NCBI GenBank assembly: GCA_963664395.2 | Contig: OY761159.2 | Coordinates: 1,312,001-1,376,000, forward strand | Reading direction: 5' to 3' | Source: Candidatus Binatia bacterium | Lineage (GTDB): Bacteria > Desulfobacterota > Binatia > Bin18 | DNA: 64,000 nt | Shown here: positions 4,685 through 64,000 of the stretch, piece after piece | How positions within the stretch are numbered: position 1 is the first letter of the stretch | Layout: every line of letters begins with the position of its first letter | Translations under genes and position numbers: made by a program | The notes under the pieces: generated by a model | Database searches by the model: none | Seen by the model: the letters and a program-made list of their open reading frames with translations, nothing else | What the model was told of the DNA's origin: nothing

Positions 4685-4970
4685 CGTTCCCCTCCCGTGT
4701 GCTTGAAACAAAATCCTCTCCTAGCAGAGACATCTGGTGAGGACAAATATCGGGATTCTCAGAATCAGGAAAAGTGACCCTGAGAGCGGCCTTCAATAAA
4801 GAGGCTATTGCCAGGCAGGGAGCTATACAGTCAGGACTTTATCAAATAGAGTGCACGCACGGATTTCACACCGCATCCCCAAAGAGTCTTTTGTCTGCCC
4901 GAGGTGAAGAGAGACGAAGAGAGACGAAGAGCTGAGGTGGGAGCGGGAAATGCAGGAAAGGTAGCACACA

Positions 4971-5570
4971 TTGACACTTGAACTGATGCTCTGGGGACTC
5001 GTAAAGGGCACGACCGGATTTATTGGAATCATTCTGTATTCCAGCTTTTTTGAATGGGCGCTGCACAAGTATCTGATGCACACCCTGCTCCTACCCTATT
5101 CATTCCGAGCCCACGCACTCGTCCACCATGGGCTCTTCCGGGCTGACTCAACCTACCATATCCAGCCTGGAGTTGATCCAAAAAAGGTCACGTTTGCGTG
5201 GTGGAACGCTCCGCTGCTCATCGGACTGCATATGCCCCTCTTGCTCAGCCTAGGCTGGTTGTTTGGTTGGTCCGTGTGTGTTGGCGGGATCCTTGCCCTG
5301 GCAGCCGATTATGTCCTGTACGAATACGTTCACTATTGTATGCACGTCCCGCAGGACCGCTGGATTGAACGCACGCACGCCTTTCAATTCGTGCGCACCC
5401 ATCATTATATCCATCATCGTTACCCCTACCAGAACCTCAACGTGGTAAACGTACTGGCAGACTGGGTCATTGGCACCATGCGGACGGCCAAGGATATTGA
5501 TCTGAGCGCCGACCCAATCGTGCATCCACAGGCTGAGCAGGAGCTGGCAACACCCATTGCCGCGCTCTAG
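4971..5570 (+). CDS. Fatty acid hydroxylase / sterol desaturase superfamily membrane di-metal enzyme
   Basis: His boxes EWALHKYLMH, HALVHH, YEYVHYCMH, HHYIHH; TM helices. Confidence 0.85.
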   Translation: MTLELMLWGLVKGTTGFIGIILYSSFFEWALHKYLMHTLLLPYSFRAHALVHHGLFRADSTYHIQPGVDPKKVTFAWWNAPLLIGLHMPLLLSLGWLFGWSVCVGGILALAADYVLYEYVHYCMHVPQDRWIERTHAFQFVRTHHYIHHRYPYQNLNVVNVLADWVIGTMRTAKDIDLSADPIVHPQAEQELATPIAAL

Positions 5571-5613
5571 TCTGGTCTGTTCAGTTCCGAAGTGTTCTCC
5601 GGCAGTGTGAGAC

Positions 5614-6207
5614 CTACCGCGCTTCCTTCTCTCGATAGGACCCCAGCGCGCTACCCGCCCCTTTCCTGATCGTCCGGTGTTCAGGCGGAGTGGGTCGGAG
5701 AACGGCCGGCCACTTGTCGGATTGTGGTTCCGTTCCCTCTTGGGCTGTTGCGGCGGGCGCTGTGTCGCCAAAGACCGGCGTTCGGCGTATGTCGATACCT
5801 GGGACATTATAGCTGAACTCAACCGGAATCCCATTCGGATCAAACGCATAGATCGAATGGATAAAGCCATGATCTATCGGACCTGAGACCTCATAGTCTG
5901 CGGCAACAAGTTTGTCTTTGAGTTCCCATAGCTCATCAGCGGACTCGACTCCAAACGCGACATGGTCAAAGGCAATCGGACCACGGAACGCGACTCCATG
6001 CCGTTTTTCCGGTACTGGCTCTGCTCCGTCCCATTCAAAAAAGGCAACCGTGTCAGTCTCGGACAGCTCAAAGAAATAATGCCGAAAGCCTTGCTCGCCA
6101 AGCGTGGCCACCAGGCGCATGCCAAGCAGATCGCGCCAGAAACGGATCGTCTTATCCATGTCGCCAGTGACAAACGCCAGGTGATTCACACCCGTAAATC
6201 GGACCAT
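5614..6207 (-). CDS. VOC/glyoxalase family protein
   Basis: GVNHLAFVTGDMDKTIRFW, FDHVAF, SIYAFDPNGIPVEF. Confidence 0.88.
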   Translation of the reverse strand: MVRFTGVNHLAFVTGDMDKTIRFWRDLLGMRLVATLGEQGFRHYFFELSETDTVAFFEWDGAEPVPEKRHGVAFRGPIAFDHVAFGVESADELWELKDKLVAADYEVSGPIDHGFIHSIYAFDPNGIPVEFSYNVPGIDIRRTPVFGDTAPAATAQEGTEPQSDKWPAVLRPTPPEHRTIRKGAGSALGSYREKEAR

Positions 6208-6305
6208 CGCAGCCTCCTTATTGTTAGCGATTCCTACAAACGCGTACGAAGCATACCATTATCCCCGAATCGGAGGATTGTGTCAGCCATAGTACTCAGA
6301 TTCAA

Positions 6306-6659
6306 TTATGAAGGGGAACGCTCTTGCTCCATATAGGTCCTGGCAGAGGAATAGGACGAGACACTATACGGGACAAGGAACGTCAGGACGATCTTGAACA
6401 ACAACCGAGGAGAGAATTCGAGATGAAAGAGCACATCGTACTGATTGATCACGGTGAGGAGTGGCCCCACGATGCCAGCCACCTTCAGCGCACGCCTGAC
6501 AGTCTCACGCCGAAACCAATAATAGAGGAAACGCCTTCCTCCACCGGACTGATTGCCTGGGGCCATCGGATATATCTCTCCCCATCCTTCGCCGTATGAA
6601 GTGCACTCTCCGGGCGAGTGCAACATCCTGCAAGCGAGCTTTATATCATACCCTGCCAC
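6306..6659 (-). CDS. Small NrtS-like membrane protein (true start may be internal, near 6566)
   Basis: RRALKVAGIVGPLLTVINQ..LTFLVPYSVSSY resembles the NrtS small nitrate/nitrite transporter family. Confidence 0.65.
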   Translation of the reverse strand: MAGYDIKLACRMLHSPGECTSYGEGWGEIYPMAPGNQSGGGRRFLYYWFRRETVRRALKVAGIVGPLLTVINQYDVLFHLEFSPRLLFKIVLTFLVPYSVSSYSSARTYMEQERSPS

Positions 6660-6679
6660 GGATGTACTGACTCATTGAG

Positions 6680-6806
6680 AAGGAGGGTGGATATTGTGCT
6701 CATCACCGGCCTGTTCAATTCTATGAATCGACTCGCAGACAGGTTGGGCGTCGAGCTTGACCCACAGATGCCGCATCTGCTGGACGCCAACGCGGATAAG
6801 AGGTAA
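6680..6806 (+). pseudogene. C-terminal remnant of a CMD/AhpD peroxidase-related protein
   Basis: DIVLITGLFNSMNRLADRLGVELD resembles the C-terminal helix of CMD-like proteins; no N-terminal part or CxxC upstream. Confidence 0.5.
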
Positions 6807-6844
6807 ATCGACGGGCGGCCGGATGTATGCTCGGGCCCTCGCCC

Positions 6845-7972
6845 CTACAACGTTTTCTCGAATACCCGGTAGGTCTTGTATATCCGGGCGCCCATGCGTT
6901 CGAGACCACGCTGCATGCTCCAGTTATCTTCAAGAATCCACGAACATTCCACGAGACGATAGCCATACGCGAGTACGTGCTGCCAGAGTTTGAGATACAG
7001 CATAGCGTCAAGACCACGCACCCGCACATCCGGATTGGTCCCCAGCAAAAGCACCCGGAGCGCGTCGATTCTGCGTTTGTACCAGAGCAATTTCAGCGCC
7101 CCCAACGGGAATAGCCGGCCATTCATGCGCCGGAGTACCTGATTGTAATCCGGCAGGGCAAGAGCAAAACCGACGGGCCGATTATCCAATTCCGCGATAA
7201 GGCACAGCTTGGGGTCAGCGACGAGGCGAAGCGTGTGCGCAAGCAGATCCACCTCAGCTTCAGTCATCGGTACGAAGCCCCAGTTGTGTTCCCAAGCCCT
7301 ATGGTAAATACCGTGCAACAGGCGGACTTCTTCTTCGAATCGCCGTACATCGATTGACCTGATAGTGATGGCCTGTTTCCTCTGTAGCCGCTGTACCCCA
7401 TGCACGAGCCGCTCGGGGATAGTCGCGTCTTCACGCAGGTCAATGAGATACGCCAACAGATCCTTGGCCTTGGCATAGCCCGCGGTTCGGATCAGCCGGG
7501 CATAGTAGGGACGATGGTGGGACATCATCACCATGGGGGCCGTATTGAAACCATTGACCAACAATCCACATTCCTCGTTGGTCGAGAAGCTCATCGGCCC
7601 CCGAACGCTCCGCACCCCGCGCTGACCGACCCACTGTTCCGCAGCGGCCAATAACGCCTGGGCAACATCCTGGTCGTCGATACTCTCAAAAAATCCGAAG
7701 AAGCCAACCGACTCGTTGTGAAATTGGATATGCCGATGGTTGACAATGGCCGCAATCCGTCCCACGACCTGCCCATTCAGGCGGGCAAGAAAATATTGGA
7801 CATCAGCGTGTTTGTGGAAGGGATGCTTTTTTGGAGAGAGGAGTTTTTTCAGATCAAAAAGCAGCGGCGGGACCCAAGCCGGGTCATCGCTATACAGCTG
7901 CCACGGCAGTTGCGTGAACTGGTGAAGATCCTGCCGGTTACGGACCGGAGCTATCCGTACATCTCTGGACAT
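6845..7972 (-). CDS. bcerS: Bacterial ceramide synthase (bCerS/YghO-like GNAT N-acyltransferase)
   Basis: WVPPL, VVGRIAAIVN, GFFGFFE, GPMSFSTNEECGLLV, AWEHNWGFVPMT, ECSWILEDN; adjacent to spt. Confidence 0.85.
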   Translation of the reverse strand: MSRDVRIAPVRNRQDLHQFTQLPWQLYSDDPAWVPPLLFDLKKLLSPKKHPFHKHADVQYFLARLNGQVVGRIAAIVNHRHIQFHNESVGFFGFFESIDDQDVAQALLAAAEQWVGQRGVRSVRGPMSFSTNEECGLLVNGFNTAPMVMMSHHRPYYARLIRTAGYAKAKDLLAYLIDLREDATIPERLVHGVQRLQRKQAITIRSIDVRRFEEEVRLLHGIYHRAWEHNWGFVPMTEAEVDLLAHTLRLVADPKLCLIAELDNRPVGFALALPDYNQVLRRMNGRLFPLGALKLLWYKRRIDALRVLLLGTNPDVRVRGLDAMLYLKLWQHVLAYGYRLVECSWILEDNWSMQRGLERMGARIYKTYRVFEKTL

Positions 7973-8044
7973 CTATAGCGTGGCACAGCGTCGTGGGTCT
8001 GCTCGGCACTCGCTGAAACATTGCACAGCACAGAGGAAACGCTC

Positions 8045-9238
8045 CTACACGGCAACCTTCTCTACCTGGATGTGAGGCCGAGTACGGGCAAAGGCGTCTA
8101 AGACAAAGTCAATCTGTTCATCGGTGTGTGTTGCCATCATGGAAATCCGAATCCGACACGAATTCTCAGGCACGGCCGGTGGAATAACCGGATTGGTAAA
8201 GATACCGGAATCAAATAATTCCTTCCAGATCATGCCCATCAACCACATATCTCCGACAATGATAGGAATCACCGGCGTATCACTCGTCCCGATATTATAG
8301 CCCAGACTCTTGAGCCCGGCCTGCATGCGGCGGGTATTGCGCCACAAGGCGACACGCCGTTCGGGTTCTTCTTCAATAACCTGAAGGGCAGTTAACACGG
8401 TGGCCAGCGACGGCGGTGGCATACTGGCGCTGAAAATCAAAGAACGGGCATGGTGTTTGATATAGTGAATAACCGGCTCCGGCCCGGCCACCACACCGCC
8501 AATCGCGGCTAAAGACTTTGAGAATGAAGACATAATGAGGCCGACCCGGTCCTCTACATCGAAATGCTGCGCCGTACCACCACCGTTCTTGCCTAACACT
8601 CCAAAGGCGTGGGCATCATCAACCATAATCTCGGTCTGGTACTGCTCGGCGAGGGCAACCAGACTCGGCAGGTCTGCGATATCGCCTTCCATAGAAAAGA
8701 TGCCGTCGGTGACAATAAGCTTCCCGGCCTTGGGCGGTGTCTTCCGAAGCTGCTGTTCTAGTGTTTCAAGGTCCCCATGCGGATAGCGGAGCACGGTCCC
8801 GTGGGAGAGCTGAGAACCGTCTACCGCGCTGGCATGATCGAGCTTATCAAGGTAGAGATAGTCGCCTTTTCCGATCAAGGTCGACAGGATACCTAAATTT
8901 GTCTGGTACCCCGTGCTAAAAACGAGCGAGGCTTCTTTGTTGAGAAAACGGGCCAAGCGCGCTTCGAGTTCATCGTGCAAATCCAGCGTCCCATTTAAGA
9001 AGCGGCTGCCGGTACACCCACTGCCATAGCGTCTGAGAGCTGCCTCGGCTGCCTCCAACACCTTGGGATGGTGGGTGAGGCCGAGATAGTTATTGGAGCC
9101 CATCATCACCTTGGGCTCACCTCGCACGACGACTTCGGTTCCTTCAGACGATTCTATGGGTGTAAAAAACGGATAATACCCGGTCGCTTGAGCCTCTCGA
9201 GCACGAGTAAAGCGAGCACATTTCTCGAAAAGGTTCAT
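8045..9238 (-). CDS. spt: Serine palmitoyltransferase (PLP-dependent alpha-oxoamine synthase)
   Basis: GYYPFF N-terminus, GSNNYLGL, GCTGSRFLNGT, DDAH, FSKS PLP-lysine; flanked by bCerS and an NAD-dependent reductase. Confidence 0.88.
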   Translation of the reverse strand: MNLFEKCARFTRAREAQATGYYPFFTPIESSEGTEVVVRGEPKVMMGSNNYLGLTHHPKVLEAAEAALRRYGSGCTGSRFLNGTLDLHDELEARLARFLNKEASLVFSTGYQTNLGILSTLIGKGDYLYLDKLDHASAVDGSQLSHGTVLRYPHGDLETLEQQLRKTPPKAGKLIVTDGIFSMEGDIADLPSLVALAEQYQTEIMVDDAHAFGVLGKNGGGTAQHFDVEDRVGLIMSSFSKSLAAIGGVVAGPEPVIHYIKHHARSLIFSASMPPPSLATVLTALQVIEEEPERRVALWRNTRRMQAGLKSLGYNIGTSDTPVIPIIVGDMWLMGMIWKELFDSGIFTNPVIPPAVPENSCRIRISMMATHTDEQIDFVLDAFARTRPHIQVEKVAV

Positions 9239-9337
9239 CCCGTCCCCCTCTCTCCATGACATCCCCGATTGTCAGTTTGCATGACATGTTGCGGTTCCGG
9301 TTTCACCCCAATCTCCCAACCCTACCAACGGTGTTCG

Positions 9338-10396
9338 CTATAACCATGTCTGTTGTTTGTACCATGCTGCTGTTTCAGCAAATCCAGTTGCCATCGGAAT
9401 CTGCGCCTCAAATCCTAACTCCCGCTTGGCCAGCGCAGTTTCGCACAGCCAAGCAGGGGCGAAGAGTTCCTTGACTTTTTCGCGATTGAATATCGTTGCT
9501 CGCCCTCTGACCGCCGCTCCGCCTTCGCTCACAGTTGCCGCCATCTGCACCAGAAACCATGGGATACGAACCATACGGACTGAGCGCCCAACGGCCTGAC
9601 TTATACACGTGGCAATTTCGCTCCAGGCATAGGATCGTGATTCCGCCACGTGATAGATCCCACGCGCGCGTGGCATTATGGCCGCGCGTAGCAGCGCCTG
9701 GACTAAATCTGCAACGTGGACGAGCTGCACAATTCTCTCCGGGCCGGCCGGCATCAGCAAAACACCACGGGCGGCGAGACGGAAGAGCAAAAAGAAATCT
9801 TTCTCCCGTGGGCCATATACCACCGGCGCACGCAAGCTGACGACCTCGAAAGCGTCGGACGCAGCCAAGCAGGCTTGTTCTCCAACGAGCTTACTCCGCC
9901 CGTAGGCAGTAATAGGGTGTGGCTCGTCGTGCGGTTCAACAGGCTGTCCCTCTCGTGCCGGGCCCGCTGCCGCGAGTGAACTGAGATACACCAGTCGTTG
10001 CGGACGCGGTTGCGCAGCCCGCATAGCCTGAACGAGCAGCTGCGTCCCCTCGGCATTCGAGCGCAGATACTCCTCCTCTGAGCGGGCTTTTGTGACGGCC
10101 GCAATATGGAAAACCGTATCAACTTGAGAGACAGCTCGCATAAGGCTGTCTCGATCTTCTAGCGAGCCTTGGATCAATTCGACCTTTTCGACCTTGTCAG
10201 CCTTATCACAGGCAAGTCGAGAAATATCACTCGTAGGGCGCACGAGAACGCGCGGCCAGACGCCTTGTTTAATCAGTGCATCAACAAGGTGCGAGCCAAT
10301 AAAGCCAGTCCCCCCCGTCACAAGGACACGGGTGCCTGCCTTCACCAGCGGAGTGCGTGGTGTTATCCCTCGGGTACTCACAGTAGCTCGAATCAC
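9338..10396 (-). CDS. cerR: NAD-dependent epimerase/dehydratase-family reductase, probable ceramide/3-oxo-sphinganine reductase
   Basis: TGGTGFIG, SSLAA, YGRSK, VYGP; first gene of the run containing spt and bcerS. Confidence 0.75.
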   Translation of the reverse strand: MIRATVSTRGITPRTPLVKAGTRVLVTGGTGFIGSHLVDALIKQGVWPRVLVRPTSDISRLACDKADKVEKVELIQGSLEDRDSLMRAVSQVDTVFHIAAVTKARSEEEYLRSNAEGTQLLVQAMRAAQPRPQRLVYLSSLAAAGPAREGQPVEPHDEPHPITAYGRSKLVGEQACLAASDAFEVVSLRAPVVYGPREKDFFLLFRLAARGVLLMPAGPERIVQLVHVADLVQALLRAAIMPRARGIYHVAESRSYAWSEIATCISQAVGRSVRMVRIPWFLVQMAATVSEGGAAVRGRATIFNREKVKELFAPAWLCETALAKRELGFEAQIPMATGFAETAAWYKQQTWL

Positions 10397-54507: not shown

Positions 54508-56208
54508 TCAACGCGGTCGGCTTCCTGCCGCCCAATTGAGGCGAATATCCCAGGTATAAATTTTGTCTGGCGGGAGTGTCGGGGCGGTTGTGTTATCAAC
54601 CTGCTCGTACACGTTTGCCGGCGGGCGTAGCGTTGCGTCGCGACCGTAGACAAAGTCCTGGTCTTCGACAATGAGCTTATAGGCCTTATTGAGCAATAAG
54701 GCCCGCGCGGGGGATGGGGTAATCAGCTCGTAGACATCCCGTGCCGCGGCAACGGCTGCATAGTTGACCGATCCGTCCGCCCGGTACCAACGCGCCGCCA
54801 TTTCCGCATTATTGCGAAACTCGGTGCCGCCTCCCACGCGTTCGAGATAGGTCAGGATTTCCCCCTGCTGTTCGTTCATATTGGGCGCATCCGGCATGCC
54901 GCGCAGATTGATATAGCCCCAGCCGGCGGCCCCGTCGATTTTGCGCGGGAAGCTATACGTCTTGTCAATCGAAGAGCCGACCGCGTTATGGCAGCCCATG
55001 CAGAACATGGTCTCTTCGTAGGTATTGAAGCGCAGCCGTCCGTCCTTGTCCTCAATAAACCCCTGGAGCAGCCAACCCATTTTATTGTACAGACCCGCAT
55101 GGCCGCGGTCCGGATAATGAGGCAGCGTGCCTTCCAGCTTTTCCTGATATTCCTCGTCGTAGTAATGCGCGAGGATGGTGGGAGACAGGAAATCCCGCTT
55201 CAGCATATAGCGCACTTCTTTCATCCGCCGCGCATTCGTGATGCTCCCGTCCGCGCCGACGCCGACATAGCGCACCGTATGCAGGAATTCCGTCCGGTGG
55301 GGATAGACATACGGTTCAACCCGCGTATCACTCCCTGCTCCCACATAGGTTGTCGGTCGGGTGAGGGCGTGAATGCGCCCGAGTGCGCCGTCCCCGTTCA
55401 GGTCCTGGCCGAGTTGAGTCTCATCAATGGGCAGGCTGCCAATGGTCTCAAAGCCCTTAATCGCGGCTTCGAGAATCGCCAGATTGGCTTTATACACTTC
55501 GCGCGAATAGACCCCGTCCTGTGTGTGTCGAAACTTGGCCGGCAACCGGAGCAGCACATCATCGGTAGATCCATTGGTCGGCCAAAACGTGCTCGGAAAG
55601 GGTTTATAGGCAAAGGCCACCCAGTGGCTGCCATCTTTGGCAAAGCCCTGCTCATCAAAGGCGGCCGCCCCAGCGGCCAGGTTGTGAAGCCGGGGAATAT
55701 AGCCCCGAAATTGCACCGCCTCCAATCGGCCGGCCAGTTCGGAAAAATTATCGTGGTTAATCCACGCCTGTATGGCAGCGTCACTCATGGCGGCGACCCG
55801 CTCACTACGGTCTTCAAACAGATTCCGCCAGCGATTGGTTTGCCCGGCCTGACTAAAACTGTACGCCCGCTGTAAGCGGGCATCGTTCATCCGATTTTCA
55901 CGGCCCGGGATATGATCTTGATGACAGACGTAGCACGGATTAAAGCGGCCCTCGGTCCGGGTATAGCATTGCGGAGGGATCACCGCTTCGGGGTTATAGA
56001 CGCCGACCAGGCCCGGTCCGGGAGAGCGGGGCGGCAACACCTCAGTCCAGCCTCTCAGCAGGGCAACCTTTTGAACTGAAGTGATTGGATGGGTTGTCGA
56101 ACGAGGTGGGCGCGTCCTGTCCGCTGTGTGCTGAACAGGCGCGTCTGCCCGTACCTCCGGAAAAACACTAAGAACACTCAATGTAATAAGACTGAGGAGG
56201 AGTTTCAT
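54508..56208 (-). CDS. Uncharacterised exported di-heme c protein
   Basis: Signal peptide; NPCYVCH and FCMGCH; ATGA-coupled to the PhoX-like gene. Confidence 0.75.
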   Translation of the reverse strand: MKLLLSLITLSVLSVFPEVRADAPVQHTADRTRPPRSTTHPITSVQKVALLRGWTEVLPPRSPGPGLVGVYNPEAVIPPQCYTRTEGRFNPCYVCHQDHIPGRENRMNDARLQRAYSFSQAGQTNRWRNLFEDRSERVAAMSDAAIQAWINHDNFSELAGRLEAVQFRGYIPRLHNLAAGAAAFDEQGFAKDGSHWVAFAYKPFPSTFWPTNGSTDDVLLRLPAKFRHTQDGVYSREVYKANLAILEAAIKGFETIGSLPIDETQLGQDLNGDGALGRIHALTRPTTYVGAGSDTRVEPYVYPHRTEFLHTVRYVGVGADGSITNARRMKEVRYMLKRDFLSPTILAHYYDEEYQEKLEGTLPHYPDRGHAGLYNKMGWLLQGFIEDKDGRLRFNTYEETMFCMGCHNAVGSSIDKTYSFPRKIDGAAGWGYINLRGMPDAPNMNEQQGEILTYLERVGGGTEFRNNAEMAARWYRADGSVNYAAVAAARDVYELITPSPARALLLNKAYKLIVEDQDFVYGRDATLRPPANVYEQVDNTTAPTLPPDKIYTWDIRLNWAAGSRPR

Positions 56209-57818
56209 TGAATTTTATTTTTTGATCCAAAACCGAAATATCGATAGGACTGCCTTTCGAGACGGTACGCCGTCCGTGCGCCAAAATCATACTTCAGCGG
56301 TCTGACCCGAAAACCCGACAGCCGAATGAGGTCATCGGTCCGAAAATCATCCACCAACGGCATATTGCCGTCGGCACTATGCTGGATAGCAAAATACGCT
56401 TGGGTCCCGTCTGGCGTAAAAAGAAAACCGGTTGACTCGGCAGACCCATCGGCAATTTTGAACAGTCGCACACAGCCGTCAGACTTGATATCGTCGTCCG
56501 CGCCGTCCGGCAGACACGCCCACACATCACTATTCCCCCGGCTCGTCCCATTGTCTTCGATGACAAACAGCACCCCCGTTGTCGGCTGAAAGGCAAGGTT
56601 ATCCGGCTGACTGAACTCGGGGTTGCCTTCAACGAAACGGTTCAGCACGATCTCCCCCGTTGTCCCGGTTGCCACGGTCACATCCTGATCAATCGCGCAT
56701 TGCACCTCGCCGTAGTTGCCCCCGGCATGGTTGCCGGTGACGGCGAAGCAGAAGCGAATGGCATCCGGCTGGTCGGGGTCGCTGAACAGCGGATCACGGT
56801 GGAGGTCCTCAGGACGGTAATAGGCCGTTGCCCCAGCCGCATTGGCGGCCTCGCGGCCAATGCGGGGTGCACCCGCATCAACAGACGCTGCCGTTGGCGT
56901 CAGTGGAATCCAGGCTCCGTTTCCAATCTCGCAACCTTGGCCGAACTGCTGTCGGTCATCCCGACACGACACTTGCAGCGCATAGGTTGTCCCTTCGATA
57001 AATGGAGAGTGATCGAGTGACGGGATGTTCCCCGTGCCGGGGTCGTACAGGTTGGCAGGGATGAATTTATACACTGCGCCGCCATCGGTATCGCCCCGCC
57101 CATAGCTCCCAGGCCGCTCTTCATCGCCCGCAATCACAACCCCTGTTTCATGCACCAGAAAGCCTTCGTACCGGATCACAGGAAAGGCGGTGCGCTTGAT
57201 AATGCGATCCGAAGCGTCTCGTCCGGCCTGATCTACGATCCGGGCCGGAGCGCCGCCCTTGCCTCGCGCAAGGATGGTGAACTCGTCAGCCGTCAGAGGG
57301 TCAAGGATTTCATACACGGACCCCGCGTCGCTGACGAAGTCTTCTTCGGTTGCGATCACCGTGCCCCACGGCGTGGTCCGAATCCCATCGCAAATCGTCA
57401 TCCCGCGTACGAGGGTTGTGACGGCCCGTGTTTGCAGGTCAACGACTTGGACGCCCGGTGTCAGCTTATCCCCAACGGCAAAGGACGCACCGCATGAACC
57501 GCTCAGGCAGCCGAGGACTTCTTCAATACAGCCGATCAAGTGGGTTGGGTGAGCAGCAGCGTGCGGCCAGAAAGCCATCTGATCCCAGTCCTGTCCGACT
57601 TCACGCGAAAAGTATTCTGCCTGAATACCTTTCCGCAGAAAAAGAAACTGCTCCTCCACGGTTTGGGTTGGCGTACGGAAATCGGGTTCTTCTTGACTTG
57701 CTGCTTGTAGCGTACACGTCAGGACAAGAGCCGCTGTCGTGAAGAGTGAACGTGTCAACAGCTTGAGAGTAGTGGAGGACACGTTCACTCTTTTGATTAC
57801 ACGCGTGAGACCAAACAT
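56205..57818 (-). CDS. phoX: PhoX/DUF839-family alkaline phosphatase-like protein
   Basis: CDGIRTTPWGT..TEE, RYEG, RPED, PDN, IED, ESTG..F.PDG..IQH. Confidence 0.8.
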   Translation of the reverse strand: MFGLTRVIKRVNVSSTTLKLLTRSLFTTAALVLTCTLQAASQEEPDFRTPTQTVEEQFLFLRKGIQAEYFSREVGQDWDQMAFWPHAAAHPTHLIGCIEEVLGCLSGSCGASFAVGDKLTPGVQVVDLQTRAVTTLVRGMTICDGIRTTPWGTVIATEEDFVSDAGSVYEILDPLTADEFTILARGKGGAPARIVDQAGRDASDRIIKRTAFPVIRYEGFLVHETGVVIAGDEERPGSYGRGDTDGGAVYKFIPANLYDPGTGNIPSLDHSPFIEGTTYALQVSCRDDRQQFGQGCEIGNGAWIPLTPTAASVDAGAPRIGREAANAAGATAYYRPEDLHRDPLFSDPDQPDAIRFCFAVTGNHAGGNYGEVQCAIDQDVTVATGTTGEIVLNRFVEGNPEFSQPDNLAFQPTTGVLFVIEDNGTSRGNSDVWACLPDGADDDIKSDGCVRLFKIADGSAESTGFLFTPDGTQAYFAIQHSADGNMPLVDDFRTDDLIRLSGFRVRPLKYDFGARTAYRLERQSYRYFGFGSKNKIQ

Positions 57819-57869
57819 CCAGACTCCTCCTCAAGAAAATATGTATAAGGCGGGCAGACAGGTAGTCGC

Positions 57870-59813
57870 CTACAGCCGGATACGCACCTCAATCGCCCAG
57901 AACACGGCTTGGGTCGATTCCTCGACGGTGTGACCAACCGTCGTCAGTCGGAGCGCCGGCTCCGGCGGCGGTTCATACGGGGAGGAGAGGCCGGTAAATT
58001 CCTGAATCTCCCCTGCCCGCGCCTTATGATACAGCCCTTTCACATCGCGCTCCTCACACACTTCAAGCGGGGTGTCTACATACACCTCAAAAAAGCGGTC
58101 AGCGCCGATGATCTCTGCCGCGTGTTGCCGGTCGGTGTGAAACGGTGCAATAACCGGCACAAGCACAATCACGCCAGCCTGATTAAAGAGCCGCGCGACT
58201 TCGGCAATGCGGCGGATATTTTCCGCGCGGTCACCTTCCGAGAAGGTGAGGTCTCGATTCAGACCAAAACGCAGATTATCACCGTCGAGCCGATAGACAT
58301 GGAATCCTTCCGTATGCAGACGCTGCTCAAGCTGTTCCGCAATGGATGATTTTCCAGAGCCGGACAAACCCGTCAGCCAGACCGTCAGCGCGCGTTGCCG
58401 CAGGGCGCGCTGACGCTCAGCAACTGAAATCAACCCGGCTTCCGCCCGGATATGGACTGACTGTTGACCTCCTGTCCGAACGGACACGTTCGGCTGAGCA
58501 AGGGGTTCCGGCCGGCGGTCAATAATCATCCCGGCACCGACCGTATTATTCGTCAGACGGTCAATGACGACAAAGGCACCGGTCGCGCGGTTCTTACGGT
58601 ACGGATCAAAGGCAAGCGGCTTTTCGAGCTCAAATGCACACCGTCCGATTTCATTGAGGGCGAGTTGAGCGGCGTCCTCACGGTGGAGGGTATTCACGTC
58701 CATACGATACCGCACCTCGGCAATCACCCCCGGCGTTGTGTTGGTGGTGTGCTTGATAAAATACTGCTTGCCAGGCTGCATGGGCTCTTCAGCCATCCAC
58801 ACCAGCATGGCTTCAAAGCGCGTGGCTATGAGGGGCACATTGTTGGGATGAACGAGCATATCTCCACGACTGACGTCGATTTCGTCTTCAAGCGTCAGGG
58901 TCACGGCCAACGGCGGCATGGCCTGCTTCAGTTCCCCCTCAAAGGTATGGATGGCTTTCACCCGGCTTGTTTTGCGTGACGGAAACACCATGACTGCATC
59001 GCCCGGGCGCACGATGCCGGAGGCCACCGTTCCACAAAAACCGCGAAAGTCCGGATTGGGGCGATTGACGTATTGGACCGGAAAACGAAAGTCGATCAGA
59101 TTGGTATCCGAAGCAATATAGACGTGCTCCAACAGGTGCATCAGCGGGCTGCCCGCGTACCACGGCAGGTGCGCGCTTTTGTTCACCACGTTATCGCCGC
59201 TCAGCGCCGCCATGGGCAGGAAGTGCACCTCGCCCAGCTCGAGTCGGGCGGCAAAGTCGGTATAGTCTTTGACAATCCGCTCAAAGGCCTCTTGGCTGTA
59301 GTCAACCAGATCCATCTTATTGACGGCAACAATAATGTGCTTGATGCCCAACAGAGAGGCGATAAAGCTGTGTCGCCGAGTTTGGGTCAGGACGCCATAG
59401 CGGGCATCGATCAGGATAATAGCCAAGTCGCACGTCGACGCGCCGGTTGCCATGTTCCGGGTGTACTGCTCATGACCAGGGGTGTCGGCAATAATGAATT
59501 TTCGTTTGGCGGTCGAAAAATAGCGATAGGCAACATCGATGGTGATGCCCTGTTCACGTTCGGCTTTGAGGCCGTCGGTCAGCAGGGCGGGGTCAAATTC
59601 CGTATCTGTCGTGCCATGTCGGACCGAGTCTTTTTTCATCGCCTCAAGCTGATCCTCGTAGATCATCTTGGAGTCGTATAAGAGCCGGCCGATAAGGGTG
59701 CTTTTGCCGTCATCCACACTGCCGCAGGTCAGGAAGCGCAGCAGGTCCTTGCGTTCATGTTGGGCAAGATAGGCTTCAATATCTGTCGCGATCAGGTCAG
59801 ACTGGTGAGACAT
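57870..59813 (-). CDS. cysNC: Bifunctional sulfate adenylyltransferase subunit 1 / APS kinase
   Basis: [21 protein letters not shown]; C-terminal [16 protein letters not shown]. Confidence 0.96.
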
Positions 59814-59855
59814 ACCGGAGTACCGTTCTTTCCGTGGGAGCGCGGCCAACTTGCC

Positions 59856-60836
59856 TTAGAAGTAGCCTTCCTTTTTCTTCTCTTCCATGGAGCCGGACTG
59901 GTCGAAATCAATGACGCGGCCTTGCCGTTCGGACTGCGTAGCCAGCAGCATTTCCTGAATAATCAACGGCAGGGTGTCGGCCTCGGATTCAATTGCGCCC
60001 GTCAGCGGATAGCAGCCCAGGGTGCGAAAGCGGACTTTCTTCAACTGCGGTTGTTCGCCCGGATGGAGCGGCAGACGGTCGTCGTCTACCATAATGAGCA
60101 CCCCGTCGCGCTCGACAACCGGACGCTCCTTGGCAAAGTACAGCGTCACAATCGGGATGTGTTCGCGGTAGATGTATTGCCAGACATCCAGCTCGGTCCA
60201 ATTCGACAACGGAAAAACACGGATGCTCTCGCCTTTATCAAGCCTGGAATTATACAGATTCCACAGTTCGGGGCGTTGGTTCTTGGGGTCCCAGCGATGG
60301 TTGCGGTCACGGAACGAATACACCCGTTCTTTCGCCCGTGATTTCTCTTCATCACGCCGCGCGCCCCCAAAGGCCGCATCAAATCCGTACTGATTGAGTG
60401 CCTGTTTGAGCGCCTGCGTCTTCATCACATCGGTGTGCTTTTTGGAGCCATGCGTCATGGGACTGATACCCGCTTTTACCCCGTCCGGGTTGATATACAC
60501 GATGAGGTCGAAGCCGAGTTCGTGTTTGATATAGGTATCTCGGAAGGTGATCATCTCTCGGAATTTCCAGGTCGTATCAACGTGCAGCAGGGGGAAGGGC
60601 AGCGTACCCGGCGCGAACGCTTTGCGGGCCAGGTGCAGCATGACCGCCGAGTCTTTGCCGATGGAGTACAGCATGACCGGATTGTCAAACTCAGCCGCCA
60701 CCTCCCGAATGATATGAATACTCTCGGCCTCAAGACATTTGAGATGCGTGAGGGAATAGGAAGTCTTTTCATGCGAGGGCTGCTGATTGGACGGATTCCC
60801 AAGGGTCTCCACTGCCGACACTCCTTCCTCAATCAC
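59856..60836 (-). CDS. cysD: Sulfate adenylyltransferase subunit 2
   Basis: [39 protein letters not shown]. Confidence 0.96.
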
Positions 60837-60858
60837 ACGGCGTCAATTGGATCTCAGC

Positions 60859-61599
60859 TTAGCCGGCAGGCGTCGAACAGACCGCGCAGTGCGGATTCTT
60901 CTCAATCGTCTGCTCGGTAAAATGAAACGCCGGAACTGTCCACTCCAGCAGTTTGGGCTGGCTGTCCGCAGCGGCCTGCACGATGATTTTGAGGGCTTCG
61001 GTCGCCTGCTGCGCACCGGCAAAGAGCGCATGTGGCGCGTCTAGCGGGAGGGCTGCGAGCGTTGTTCCGGCCTGCCCTCCATCACACCCTACTACGGAGA
61101 AGAGACAGCGCAGGCACGGCCACTCGTCCCTGTCACCTCGACTCACGAATAGTTGTCCGCGCTCCTGGGTGGCGACTGTCCACACGAACGGCTTCTGCCG
61201 GGCGTAACACACATCGTGTAAGGCAGGCGTTGTTGCCACTATCAGATCATACTGTTGACCCAATTGGTCAGGCTGCTGGTCGGGCCGGTCGGTATGGGTC
61301 ACAATCGTGCAATCGGGGTTGAGACGCCTGAGCGTGTTCGCTATGGGCGACGTATCCGGTCCACGGCCCGGTCCACAGAATTGTTCAGCCAATGCGGAAA
61401 AGACCAGTGGAGCCTTGGAGCCGGCCACACCTATAGTCCCAACTCCGGCAGCGGCCAGATAGAATAGAGCGGCGGCGGCTAACGGCCCGTCCCCGTCAAC
61501 ATAGACGCGACTCCGGAGAATCTTTTCCTGCCCTGTACCGCCAACCTGAGGCAGGATGATCTGTCGGCTGTAGCGTTCAATCTGAGTGTCTCCGAGCAT
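60859..61599 (-). CDS. Degenerate ThiF/MoeB-family protein (inactive adenylation domain)
   Basis: Keeps ERYSRQIIL..VG..GQEK and both CxxC Zn motifs; P-loop is DGDGPL and the DxD..SNLxRQ segment is absent. Confidence 0.8.
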   Translation of the reverse strand: MLGDTQIERYSRQIILPQVGGTGQEKILRSRVYVDGDGPLAAAALFYLAAAGVGTIGVAGSKAPLVFSALAEQFCGPGRGPDTSPIANTLRRLNPDCTIVTHTDRPDQQPDQLGQQYDLIVATTPALHDVCYARQKPFVWTVATQERGQLFVSRGDRDEWPCLRCLFSVVGCDGGQAGTTLAALPLDAPHALFAGAQQATEALKIIVQAAADSQPKLLEWTVPAFHFTEQTIEKNPHCAVCSTPAG

Positions 61600-61648
61600 G
61601 GATCATTCCGAAGCAGTGAAGAACGTACGGTCAAAGAGAACGGCTCAG

Positions 61649-62662
61649 TCAGGCCGCTCCCTGTGCCTGGCTTTTAGTGTGACGGGCGTGACGCTGGTTA
61701 TACTCTTTCCAGCCGGCCCACAGATTTGTACTCAGATATTTGTCTCCAAAATCCGGGAAGAGCGTCACGACGCTGCCTGCCTCGATTTCACGGGCAACCT
61801 GGAGTGCGGCCCACATCGCCGCACCGGACGATTGGCCGACTAAGATCCCTTCTTCCCGGCCGAGTCGATATACCGTTTCATAGGCATCTTCGGTCGAAAC
61901 ATTGATCTTTCGGTCAAGCCGCTCTTCAGAGTAAATGCCGGGTACGATCGAACTGTCCATATGCTTGAGCCCCTCAAGCCCATGGAAGGCGTCATCCGGT
62001 TCCACCCCAATAATCCGGATATCCGGATTTTTCTCCTTCAGGTAGCGCCCGGTTCCCATCAGTGTGCCGCCGGTCCCCATGCCGGCCACAAAATGGGTTA
62101 TTTGCTCTTTAGTCTGCCACCACAGCTCCGGTCCGGTTGTCTCATAGTGGGCCAAGGGATTATGCGGATTAAAGTATTGATCCGGTTTGAAATAGTGCTC
62201 GGGATCCTTCTTCAACATGTCCCGACACAGTTCCAAGGCGCCATCCGAGCCCTCCATGGGGCTGCTGAAGATCATCTTTGCACCATACGCGGCAATGATT
62301 TTTTTCCGTTCCATACCAACGTTGGCCGGGATACATAGCTTGACCGGATAGCCCAGCACTGCCCCAATCATGGCCAGCGCAATCCCGGTATTCCCGGATG
62401 TCGAGTCGAGAATAATTTTGCCCTGGGTCAGCGCGCCGGTCTCAAGGCCCTTGCGGACCATACACAGCGCCGGGCGATCTTTGACCGACCCACCAGGATT
62501 GAAGCCTTCGAGCTTGGCATAGATTCGAACGCCTGGGGCAATAGGCGTGGTCAGTCGGGTAATTTCGAGCAGCGGCGTATTCCCGATCAGATGCAGGACG
62601 GACGGAACACGCAGGGGTCCTGCCGGAGGGGGCCCCTCGGTCGGACTAGGCAGGAGTGACAC
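61649..62662 (-). CDS. cysM: PLP-dependent cysteine synthase family protein (CysM-like)
   Basis: IGNTPL, NPGGSVKDR, STSGNTG, GMGTGGT, GDKYLS. Confidence 0.85.
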   Translation of the reverse strand: MSLLPSPTEGPPPAGPLRVPSVLHLIGNTPLLEITRLTTPIAPGVRIYAKLEGFNPGGSVKDRPALCMVRKGLETGALTQGKIILDSTSGNTGIALAMIGAVLGYPVKLCIPANVGMERKKIIAAYGAKMIFSSPMEGSDGALELCRDMLKKDPEHYFKPDQYFNPHNPLAHYETTGPELWWQTKEQITHFVAGMGTGGTLMGTGRYLKEKNPDIRIIGVEPDDAFHGLEGLKHMDSSIVPGIYSEERLDRKINVSTEDAYETVYRLGREEGILVGQSSGAAMWAALQVAREIEAGSVVTLFPDFGDKYLSTNLWAGWKEYNQRHARHTKSQAQGAA

Positions 62663-62665
62663 GCC

Positions 62666-62941
62666 TCATCCTCCGGCAATAGCAGGCACGATGGACACTT
62701 CGTCGCCCTCTTTCACCGGAGTGTCCAGACCATTGAGGAAACGAATGTCCTCACCATTCACAAAGATATTGACAAAACGACGGACCGCGCCAGCTTCATC
62801 ACACAACCGTTCTTTAATACCAGGAGAATTGTTCTCCATATCATTGACCAACGCCCCAACCGTGGCTCCATCGGCCGAGACTGCTTCCGCACCTCCAGTA
62901 AAGCGGCGCAACGGGGTTGGGATACGTACCTGAGCACTCAT
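62666..62941 (-). CDS. MoaD/CysO ubiquitin-like sulfur carrier
   Basis: [17 protein letters not shown], ends VPAIAGG. Confidence 0.92.
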
Positions 62942-63039
62942 GTTCACTCCCTCCTGATTCAGAATCACTCGTCTACTCTTTCGAGCTTCTACTGTTACGT
63001 TTTTGCTCCGGTCTGACAATCACCCTGCCTGATTTTCAT

Positions 63040-63813
63040 TCAGACCGGAGTGCAGAGTCTTTCCAACTCATAGGCTTCGGAGTGTAAGCCCGTAATCGTC
63101 CGCGGCGTGCCGCACAGCGGACAGTGCGGGCTGGGGCGCACCCGGACCTCTCGCCAGCGCAGGGCGAGGGCGTCATAGGTCAGCAAGCGGTCGGTCAGGA
63201 GTTCTCCCGTTCCGCTCAGATATTTTACCGCCTCGGCAGCCTGAACACTGCCCAGACTGCCGGCCAGGCTGCCAAGGATACCGGCCTCCTGGCAGGTGGG
63301 ATTCTCATCGGGATGAGGCGGAACCGGGAACAGGCAGCGCAAACACGTCGTCTGATGGGGTAAGACCGTCAATGCCTGACCGTGGAACTGGACAATGCCG
63401 GCGTAAGAGAGTGGTTTGTTGAGCAGCCCGGCACCGTCATTGATCAAAAATTTTGTAGCCACGCCATCCGTTCCGTCAATAATAAAATCATAGCCGGCAA
63501 AGACATCCGCGAGATTGCCCGCATGCAGCCGCTGGTTATAGGTCAGCACCGTTATCGAGGGGTTGAGTTGCTGAATTTTTTCCCTGGCCGAATCGACCTT
63601 TGGCTTTCCTATATCCGGGGTAAAGTGCAAGATTTGCCGTTGCAGGTTTGACAGCTCGACACTGTCCGAATCCACCAGACCAATCGTTCCCACACCCGCG
63701 AGGGCGAGCCCAAATGCGGCCGGAGAGCCAAGTCCGCCAACGCCAACCACCAGGACTTTCCCCTCACGAACGCCGGTGGGAATCGCCGCTTGTGCCGGTT
63801 TCCGCTTCTTCAT
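63040..63813 (-). CDS. moeB: ThiF/MoeB adenylyltransferase lacking the N-terminal RYSRQ arm
   Basis: GVGGLG, DSDSVELSNLQRQ, DGTD, CLRC, TCQEAG, CPLC; no rhodanese domain. Confidence 0.88.
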   Translation of the reverse strand: MKKRKPAQAAIPTGVREGKVLVVGVGGLGSPAAFGLALAGVGTIGLVDSDSVELSNLQRQILHFTPDIGKPKVDSAREKIQQLNPSITVLTYNQRLHAGNLADVFAGYDFIIDGTDGVATKFLINDGAGLLNKPLSYAGIVQFHGQALTVLPHQTTCLRCLFPVPPHPDENPTCQEAGILGSLAGSLGSVQAAEAVKYLSGTGELLTDRLLTYDALALRWREVRVRPSPHCPLCGTPRTITGLHSEAYELERLCTPV

Positions 63814-63854
63814 TTTCCTGACTCATTTCCTTGGCGTATCCGACAGCGTATGGC

Positions 63855-63884
63855 AAAAAGCCTCTTCCCAACAGGAAAGAGGCT
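63855..63884 (-). terminator. Rho-independent terminator-like hairpin upstream of moeB
   Basis: Minus strand AGCCTCTTTCC-TGTT-GGGAAGAGGCT followed by TTTT. Confidence 0.6.
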
Positions 63885-63918
63885 CGGCTTCGATCTCTCT
63901 TTGCCCATGCTAAAAGTC

Positions 63919-64000
63919 TTATTCGTCCTCAAACTCGAAATCTATTTCCTCAATATCGATACCTAGAACGGCCCCTCGTCCTGTTCTGACCGCGACATCT
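63919..64000 (-). CDS. 3' end of an unidentified CDS with acidic C-terminus
   Basis: Open frame ..RTGRGAVLGIDIEEIDFEFEDE* entering from the right edge. Confidence 0.35.
   Translation of the reverse strand, partial: DVAVRTGRGAVLGIDIEEIDFEFEDE

Follow-up and report, generated by a model that had tools for sequence, protein, structure and literature searches.

Gene content of the operon and anatomy of the ThiF pair

The window, a 64,000-nucleotide stretch of the genome of a Candidatus Binatia bacterium (contig OY761159.2, positions 1,312,001 to 1,376,000), carries on its minus strand, at 57870-63813, six closely packed genes in the order thiF (active, armless)-cysO-cysM-thiF (dead, arm kept)-cysD-cysNC. 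A sequence-only reading of this DNA had claimed that two ThiF/MoeB-type proteins with complementary defects flank a GG-tailed carrier and a CysM in one operon and form a heterodimer. The profile matches (Pfam and NCBIfam, on which all family assignments are based) agree with this gene content, and the pair is probably a heterodimeric CysO adenylyltransferase with one active site. The features are listed below, lengths being given in amino acids (aa).

63813..63040, minus strand: active armless ThiF/MoeB-type adenylyltransferase subunit (257 aa; Pfam ThiF, 236 bits)
62666..62941, minus strand: CysO-like ubiquitin-fold sulfur carrier (91 aa, ending in AIAGG; Pfam ThiS, 68.8 bits)
61649..62662, minus strand: CysM-type cysteine synthase dependent on pyridoxal phosphate (PLP) (337 aa; TIGR01136 cysKM, 353.9 bits, cut-off 344.15)
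61599..60859, minus strand: dead ThiF/MoeB paralogue, the proposed arm-donating partner (246 aa; Pfam ThiF, 80 bits)
61516..61599, minus strand: arm of the dead paralogue, codons 1-28, MLGDTQIERYSRQIILPQVGGTGQEKIL (R12 is the equivalent of MoeB R14)
59856..60836, minus strand: CysD, sulfate adenylyltransferase small subunit (NF009214, 540.8 bits, cut-off 413)
57870..59849, minus strand: CysN-CysC fusion, sulfate adenylyltransferase large subunit and adenosine phosphosulfate (APS) kinase (NF004035, 1009 bits, cut-off 715)
63814..63918, minus strand: leader/intergenic stretch upstream of the operon, in which three-frame translation showed no hidden arm-coding frame

The Pfam ThiF match of the upstream protein spans profile positions 19-237 of 238 only, and the motifs GVGGLG, D48, SNLQRQ (R59), K72, DGTD (D116), CLRC, TCQEAG and CPLC are kept. 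The residue set of an active enzyme (G41, D62, R73, K86 and D130 in MoeB) is present as G27, D48, R59, K72 and D116. Before beta-1 there are 18 residues only, which are non-homologous, and no arm (RYSRQ) was found in the three minus-strand frames of the 187 nucleotides (nt) upstream, 63814-64000, where stops were seen; the full adenylation site and the missing upstream arm of the sequence-only reading were thus both recovered. Alignment of 28 sequences of the armless family showed G24, G26, G27, G29, D48, S55, N56, L57, R59, Q60, K72, D113, T115, D116, C157, C160, C174, C231 and C234 to be invariant and the N-terminus to be variable. The 120 closest homologues (66-99% identity) all possess the P-loop, and the arm occurs in none of them (0/120), nor in any of the 38 intact upstream genes at the loci found with the partner profile; retention of RYSRQ by orthologues, raised earlier as the mark of a local error, was not observed. 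In the active subunits of several families (loci L124, L125, L129, L131, L132, L138, L141 and L114) the glycine loop reads GxGAxG instead of GxGGxG, with Ala at the position of MoeB G41, the remaining catalytic motifs being intact.

The downstream protein retains membership of the fold (its ThiF match compares with a cut-off of 28.1 bits) together with the arm. Full-length alignment with Escherichia coli MoeB (1JW9) placed R12 at MoeB R14 and showed the substitutions G41 to P39, D62 to G60, N70 to A69, R73 to E72 and K86 to D82, as well as deletion of the LDCTDN stretch containing D130. Both zinc CxxC pairs (CLRC, CAVC) are retained and the reading frame is intact, so that the alignment agrees with the claimed loss of the P-loop and SNLxRQ beside a preserved arm and zinc site. 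The losses are complementary: the active copy has the equivalents of MoeB G41, R73, K86 and D130, whereas the dead copy has that of R14 only. The four former residues are named as the adenylation machinery in a 2025 review (PMC12355090).

The partner family gave more than 2,600 database matches, the best 120 of which (40-98% identity) were analysed together with the window protein. RYSRQI is exact in 121/121 proteins, and the P-loop, DxD, SNLxRQ and Mg-Asp motifs are absent in 121/121. The first 28 residues form the most conserved stretch of the partner, the lowest entropy being that of residues 1-20 (0.31 bits). Even among divergent partners [YW][SA]RQ is kept in 20/20, and the partner of family f114, in which the first Arg is replaced by Leu, keeps the second Arg, the equivalent of MoeB R14. 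The ratio of non-synonymous to synonymous substitution (dN/dS) is 0.25-0.42 in 12 unsaturated pairs, compared to 0.08-0.34 for the active subunit. The dead partner is therefore under purifying selection, which answers the earlier suspicion of a decaying paralogue.

Prediction of the complex, suggested earlier as a check on the heterodimer, gave an ipSAE of 0.93 (0.94, 0.93 and 0.93 in the separate runs), the best of three controls reaching 0.00; the ipSAE mark is reached by 58 of 80 solved complexes and by 2 of 110 mismatched pairs. The runs share at least 90% of their contacts and the partner has a pLDDT of at least 82. The predicted contacts of partner residues 5, 8-13, 15-16 and 18-19 are with active-subunit residues 31, 34-40 and 54-61, corresponding to the ATP-loop helix and SNLQRQ (54-61). 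The predicted-interface residues of the partner are more conserved than the rest (1.10 vs 1.59 bits, p = 0.002), also when the arm is left out (1.30 vs 1.71 bits, p = 0.016). In the shortest partners, of 119-200 aa in some families and of 119-156 aa in f121, f119 and f2, the zinc site and the central part of the domain are missing; what is left is the arm, the first beta-alpha-beta unit and, at the C-terminus, a helix alignable with the interface helix of the core.

A further feature of the partner is Cys97 (LNPDC motif, codon 61309-61311), which is invariant in an alignment of 35 partner sequences. It does not ligate zinc, and a Cys is lacking at the corresponding position of canonical ThiFs. 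A role in a persulfide relay is conceivable.

Recurrence of the pair, its phylogeny and a fused counterpart

Eighty loci were fetched with the partner profile, 41 with a partner and 39 with a canonical ThiF only. An armless, P-loop-positive ThiF lies upstream on the same strand in 38 of the 41, the other three being cut by a contig end. The gene order in relatives is thiF(active)-(thrC-like)-cysO-(cysM)-(NIL ORF)-partner-cysD-cysNC (ORF, open reading frame), and the neighbourhood of the operon is conserved. Three of six further loci apparently duplicate earlier ones and the other three show the same pair; the new loci of genomes G653 and G463, which belong to other families, both contain it. 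Among 25 carrier loci from 15 other GTDB families, 20 contain an armless active ThiF followed, after cysM, by an arm-bearing degenerate partner of 119-274 aa. Four (family f6 twice, f118 and f120) have a single canonical arm-bearing ThiF and no partner, no second arm motif being found in any frame within about 7 kb; the prediction that relatives which keep the arm need no donor fits these four loci. In the remaining one (L126, genome G076, family f3) two ThiFs, at L126 4964-5737 and 8548-9456, flank cysO-cysM, both with the arm and the catalytic motifs.

Overall, with the window included, 62 of 65 distinct partner-bearing loci contain the armless gene, and the other three are truncated by contig ends; the question whether the two degenerate forms always occur together is thereby answered as far as the contigs extend. 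Neither an armless gene without a partner nor a dead partner beside an arm-bearing enzyme was found among the loci examined. Since the pair recurs in 62/65 loci, it is not due to chance, and the combination of an armless and a dead protein is a conserved trait of the lineage rather than a peculiarity of one locus. Over 37 loci the pairwise distances among partners follow those among active copies (r = 0.954, a value reached in 0 of 2000 permutations), the partner evolving 1.64 times faster than the active copy.

Of the 401 genomes sampled from the class, 376 contain the carrier, a tally which takes in eight genomes flagged as unpublished, on which nothing else here is knowingly based. Within the GTDB family of the window the partner was found in 52 of 54 sampled genomes, the two misses being 65% and 84% complete. 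A survey of the class with the partner profile at E <= 1e-50 found it in 56/401 genomes, nearly all of one GTDB family, a figure to be read as a lower bound and not as a distribution, since divergent partners of at least 11 other families escape detection at such a cut-off. In a phylum-level search at 1e-10 partners were not separable from canonical MoeB.

Phylogenetic analysis recovered one clade (SH-aLRT 98) made up of the armless enzymes, the upstream copy of G076 and, as sister to these, the four canonical enzymes of Binatia. The partners all lie on one side of a branch (97), which the intact downstream copy of G076 joins next (98); they are long-branched and stand outside the Binatia CysO-ThiF clade in both trees. 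The partner lineage arose either by tandem duplication or by recruitment of a second ThiF. The position of the arm-bearing upstream G076 copy inside the armless group means that the arm was lost more than once, or that this row is misplaced.

An intermediate form occurs in G463 (family f3, L115 5968-6810), where a half-degenerate partner, which keeps GAGAVG and the equivalents of D62, R73 and K86 and has lost N70 and D130, stands beside an armless enzyme. It is tempting to speculate, and the chances are about even, that the class keeps a complete natural series of the way in which E1 asymmetry arises. Such a series would begin with a single homodimeric CysO-ThiF (families f6, f118 and f120) and lead to two intact paralogues around cysO-cysM (G076). 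With the arm gone from the enzyme, the partner would be half degenerate at first (G463), then fully dead (the window), and would finally be reduced to 119-200 aa, in which scarcely anything but the arginine arm and interface helices remains.

In Bacillota both parts are found in a single chain of 460-495 aa, a form to which ten of the 150 top-ranking cluster representatives for the active protein belong. The N-domain is dead: it lacks ATP motifs and carries an arm, RYxRHI, that does not vary. The active C-domain is a fully equipped ThiF without an arm. Comparison of the N-domain with the Binatia partner profile by hhalign gave 99.5% and E 7e-23, against E 4e-5 with the active profile. The fused form occurs in 11 of 401 genomes of the Bacillota phylum sample and a CysM-like gene lies directly downstream of it in 10 of the 11. 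An AlphaFold2 (AF2) model (pLDDT 82.4, pTM 0.89) had, among the PDB matches listed, whole-length matches to eukaryotic UBA1, UBA6 and UBA7 only (TMq 0.55-0.65), the ThiF and MoeB structures covering its C-half only. That two parts are joined in one protein within the same metabolic setting is a classical argument for their cooperation where they are encoded separately. The evidence is compatible with the Bacillota fusion being an independent dead-plus-active form in the same cysteine-synthase context, a proposal which belongs to the evenly balanced series reading given above.

The fused loci (L102-L111) come from genomes G1097, G1017, G1123, G832, G876, G917, G953, G1173, G986 and G1071; a Pfam scan of the ORFs of two of them, L102 and part of L104, showed no ThiS-like carrier. 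A member of the cluster in a Thermoanaerobacterium genome is annotated merely as 'ThiF family adenylyltransferase', and NCBIfam contains no model specific for these proteins. A search for longer relatives of the window partner gave no close fused form; all matches were fusions of a canonical ThiF with rhodanese, MoaE, ThiS or JAB (27-37% identity).

Pathway context and neighbouring genes

The intergenic gaps in operon order are 98 nt (20 nt with the TTG start of the carrier), 3, 49, 22 and 6 nt. The longest ORF of the carrier, 62666-63019, starts from a TTG at 63019; its likely start is the ATG at 62941, the 91-aa form aligning with orthologues over the full length. The carrier also matches NCBIfam SAMP1 (63.3 bits, cut-off 60). 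The cysteine synthase scores 240.6 bits with PALP and 385.6 bits with TIGR01138 cysM, slightly below the cut-off of 394.2. A GG-tailed carrier of the ThiS/MoaD fold thus adjoins a CysM-type PLP enzyme, which is a feature of the CysO-CysM pathway. The single Prok-JAB of the genome (70.7 bits) lies at C1:895063-895407, some 480 kb from the operon. A third genomic ThiF, a 392-aa rhodanese-MoeB with a complete arm-bearing MoeB domain at C1:80746-81450, is also far from it; the gene (L001 1420-2598, minus strand) adjoins ORFs resembling a 4Fe-4S ferredoxin and an FAD oxidoreductase.

Many relatives contain, between the armless ThiF and cysO, a threonine-synthase-like PLP enzyme of 417-430 aa with an N-terminal zinc ribbon (L030 3119-4393, Pfam PALP 233 bits; also L023, L027, L041-L043, L047 and others). 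It takes the place of cysM in some loci and is absent from the window operon, matches elsewhere in the window genome being found at C1:2436164-2437333 (37% identity, one TAG within the match) and C1:648011-649180. This enzyme may, as we assume after the work on Streptomyces MetM/MetO, turn the carrier thiocarboxylate into homocysteine. Some relatives also have an ORF of 91-95 aa with a NIL domain (Pfam NIL, 40-46 bits) between cysM and the dead ThiF (L023 5722-5997, L043 5643-5930), where the window has its 49-nt gap.

An unrelated gene for a BamD/YfiO-like lipoprotein ends at about 63919, 105 nt upstream of the operon. Downstream of cysNC two big ORFs with overlapping stops, 54508-56208 (minus strand, 566 aa) and 56205-57818 (minus strand, 537 aa), both have signal-peptide-like N-termini; two CxxCH motifs (CYVCH, CMGCH) in the former suggest haem c binding. 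A scan of 57000-64000 against Rfam matched no family, and a scan of 57500-64000 for promoters and terminators gave 4 and 7 sites compared to 3.1 and 5.8 expected, which is the chance level.

Proposed mechanism, its alternatives and relation to known systems

In the mechanism proposed here the upstream armless protein would be the sole catalytic subunit, which binds ATP-Mg and the GG tail of the carrier and forms carrier-AMP. The downstream partner, unable to bind ATP, would dimerise through the usual ThiF/MoeB interface, so that its RYSRQ arm (R12) may lie over the nucleotide site of the catalytic subunit. It would thereby take the role which the second protomer has in MoeB/ThiF homodimers and the inactive adenylation domain in eukaryotic E1s. 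The carrier, once loaded with sulfur as a thiocarboxylate, would feed CysM for the synthesis of cysteine, and CysD and CysNC of the same operon would supply activated sulfate upstream.

Several observations weigh against this proposal. The arginine fingers of MoeB (R14) and ThiF (R11) are stated to be non-essential (PMC13139853, 2026), so that an armless ThiF might work alone, and the partner may contribute less to the chemistry than to stability. Another possible mate of the armless subunit is the arm-bearing rhodanese-MoeB encoded elsewhere in the genome. The operon itself has neither a rhodanese nor a JAB (Mec+) gene, which leaves sulfur loading and cysteine release without a local explanation. 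The complex prediction covered the active-partner pair and three controls, and, since MoeB/ThiF homodimers have already been solved, its score may reflect memory of those structures and shows likeness to them. Co-divergence of the two proteins shows their joint vertical inheritance and not interaction as such. The 25 carrier loci were chosen for long contigs and are thus a non-random sample, related genomes are not independent, and most of them are metagenome-assembled genomes. In two loci the genes are broken, the active ThiF being split across two frames (L123 of G483, 4967-6953) and cysM lying in four pieces (L130 of G478, 5995-9612); these frameshifts are either assembly indels or real pseudogenes.

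The first of these points leads to an explanation that is unlikely, if still deserving attention, namely that the heterodimer is real and the partner is mainly a structural stabiliser or scaffold which keeps the catalytic subunit soluble, or docks CysM or the sulfur donor. The arm would then be conserved as dimer interface, its arginine not being needed for catalysis. This would be in line with yeast Tcd1, an inactive protein needed for the solubility of Tcd2, the Arg finger being nearly dispensable, and with the non-essential fingers of MoeB and ThiF (PMC13139853); moreover, the inactive adenylation domain has been described as giving structural stability (PMC11354881), and both the conservation of the interface outside the arm and the invariance of Cys97 point the same way. 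However, the arm motif is the single most conserved element of the partner, family f114 drops its first Arg yet keeps the equivalent of MoeB R14, and the catalytic subunit lost its arm only where a partner supplies one. These facts argue for the arginine arm as the property that is probably under selection.

It is considerably less probable that the armless ThiF is independent of the partner, either as a homodimer or with the rhodanese-MoeB, the dead paralogue having a separate role such as binding or sequestering the carrier or regulating sulfur assimilation. A canonical arm-bearing rhodanese-MoeB is indeed encoded at a distance, some enzymes of the ThiF family lack the finger (TcdA; PMC13139853), and armless singletons occur in other lineages (P0256 of Nitrospinota and P0339), where they are known from protein sequences alone. 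Such independence is difficult to reconcile with the strict co-occurrence (62/62 loci where the contig permits the check), with the arm-bearing enzymes of four loci that have no partner, with the fusion of both domains in a single chain and with the co-divergence of the two proteins; the ThiF core, moreover, is largely deleted in the shortest partners, which counts against a carrier-binding role. Further armless singletons from other phyla are P0241 and P0242. That the dead copy is a functionless decaying duplicate, or an artefact of annotation or assembly, is very improbable: it evolves faster than the active copy, its length ranges from 119 to 338 aa across lineages and two matches (G666 and G594) contain in-frame stops, but dN/dS indicates constraint in 12/12 unsaturated pairs, the gene is present in almost all sampled genomes of the family, the arm is invariant and the reading frame in the window is intact.

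The pair shares with MoeB/ThiF the Rossmann-like adenylation fold, the Zn CxxC pairs, a GG-tailed beta-grasp substrate and the N-terminal arginine that acts in trans in MoeB (R14) and ThiF (R11). Against the structures of E. coli MoeB-MoaD and ThiF-ThiS (1JW9/1JWA/1JWB, 1ZUD/1ZFN) the active copy scores 162-173 bits and the dead copy 49-70 bits. A MoeB or ThiF homodimer is symmetric and has two active sites, whereas arm and site are on different polypeptides in the window, and a dimer of these two proteins can therefore have at most one complete site. In this respect the pair resembles the eukaryotic NAE1-UBA3, SAE1-UBA2 and single-chain UBA1/UBA6/UBA7, which combine an inactive and an active adenylation domain, the former donating the arginine to the single active site; the sequence features of the window pair agree with such an arrangement. 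Unlike eukaryotic E1s, the window proteins, with a single ThiF match each, lack both the catalytic-cysteine (FCCH/SCCH) insertions and a ubiquitin-fold domain, and their product is presumably a metabolic thiocarboxylate and not a protein conjugate. An E2 is not among the six operon genes, and no genome-wide search for E2-like genes was made.

The CysO-CysM-Mec+ system of Mycobacterium tuberculosis presumably has, as in the window, a GG-tailed carrier and CysM in one operon with a ThiF/MoeB-type activator. In mycobacteria MoeB and rhodanese are fused in one activator, MoeZ, and the operon includes a JAB (Mec+) gene. By contrast, the window ThiFs have no rhodanese domain and the only Prok-JAB is the distant one described above.

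The principle of one inactive and one active half has two precedents. BilD of the type II Bil antiphage operons is a pseudo-dimer of an inactive N-domain and an active C-domain, with Arg9 coming from the inactive domain; it is a single chain with a CYS domain, accompanied by an E2 and a deubiquitinase (DUB), and serves conjugation and defence, whereas the window has two genes in a sulfate-assimilation/cysteine operon (PMC10557695). According to the same source the known bacterial ThiF-, MoeB- and Cap2-type proteins are all homodimers, BilD being the fused exception. In yeast, Tcd1-Tcd2 is a ThiF-family heterodimer whose inactive paralogue gives an arginine finger to the active one, its single-gene relatives forming homodimers with two sites (PMC13139853). 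It is eukaryotic, anchored in the mitochondrial membrane and acts on tRNA (ct6A) without a sulfur carrier, and Tcd1 keeps a nearly full domain (PMC13139853), without the shrinkage to little more than the arm that is seen in partners of the class studied here.

In textbooks and recent reviews MoeB/ThiF figure as symmetric homodimers and asymmetry as a hallmark of eukaryotic E1s, the antiphage BilD being the only recent bacterial case of it (PMC10557695, PMC12355090, PMC11354881). A 2006 survey of prokaryotic ubiquitin-like operons lists operons of carrier, E1 and cysteine synthase and, in its available text, makes no mention of E1 heterodimers or duplication (PMC1779556). Work of 2009 on the E1 superfamily excepted, the literature searched, as far as its texts were available, contained no two-gene inactive/active or tandem dead-plus-active ThiF in a bacterial sulfur-carrier pathway. 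Within this literature the two-gene form of E1 asymmetry in such a pathway is new, as the sequence-only reading had supposed; the underlying principle was already known from BilD and Tcd1-Tcd2.

For annotation, the result means that two genes which are both labelled 'ThiF family adenylyltransferase' or 'MoeB' differ in kind: one product is incapable of ATP binding and the other probably not complete by itself. If the miniature partners suffice for activation of the armless enzyme, no smaller trans-acting E1 subunits would be known, and they would provide a tractable bacterial model for the origin of heterodimeric and pseudo-dimeric eukaryotic E1s by duplication followed by complementary loss. 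Should the proposed heterodimer be correct, its small soluble proteins would make it testable how and why E1s lost one active site and what the inactive half adds. An asymmetry like that of E1s would then have evolved in a housekeeping sulfur pathway, in the form of two genes, with living intermediates and a fused counterpart.

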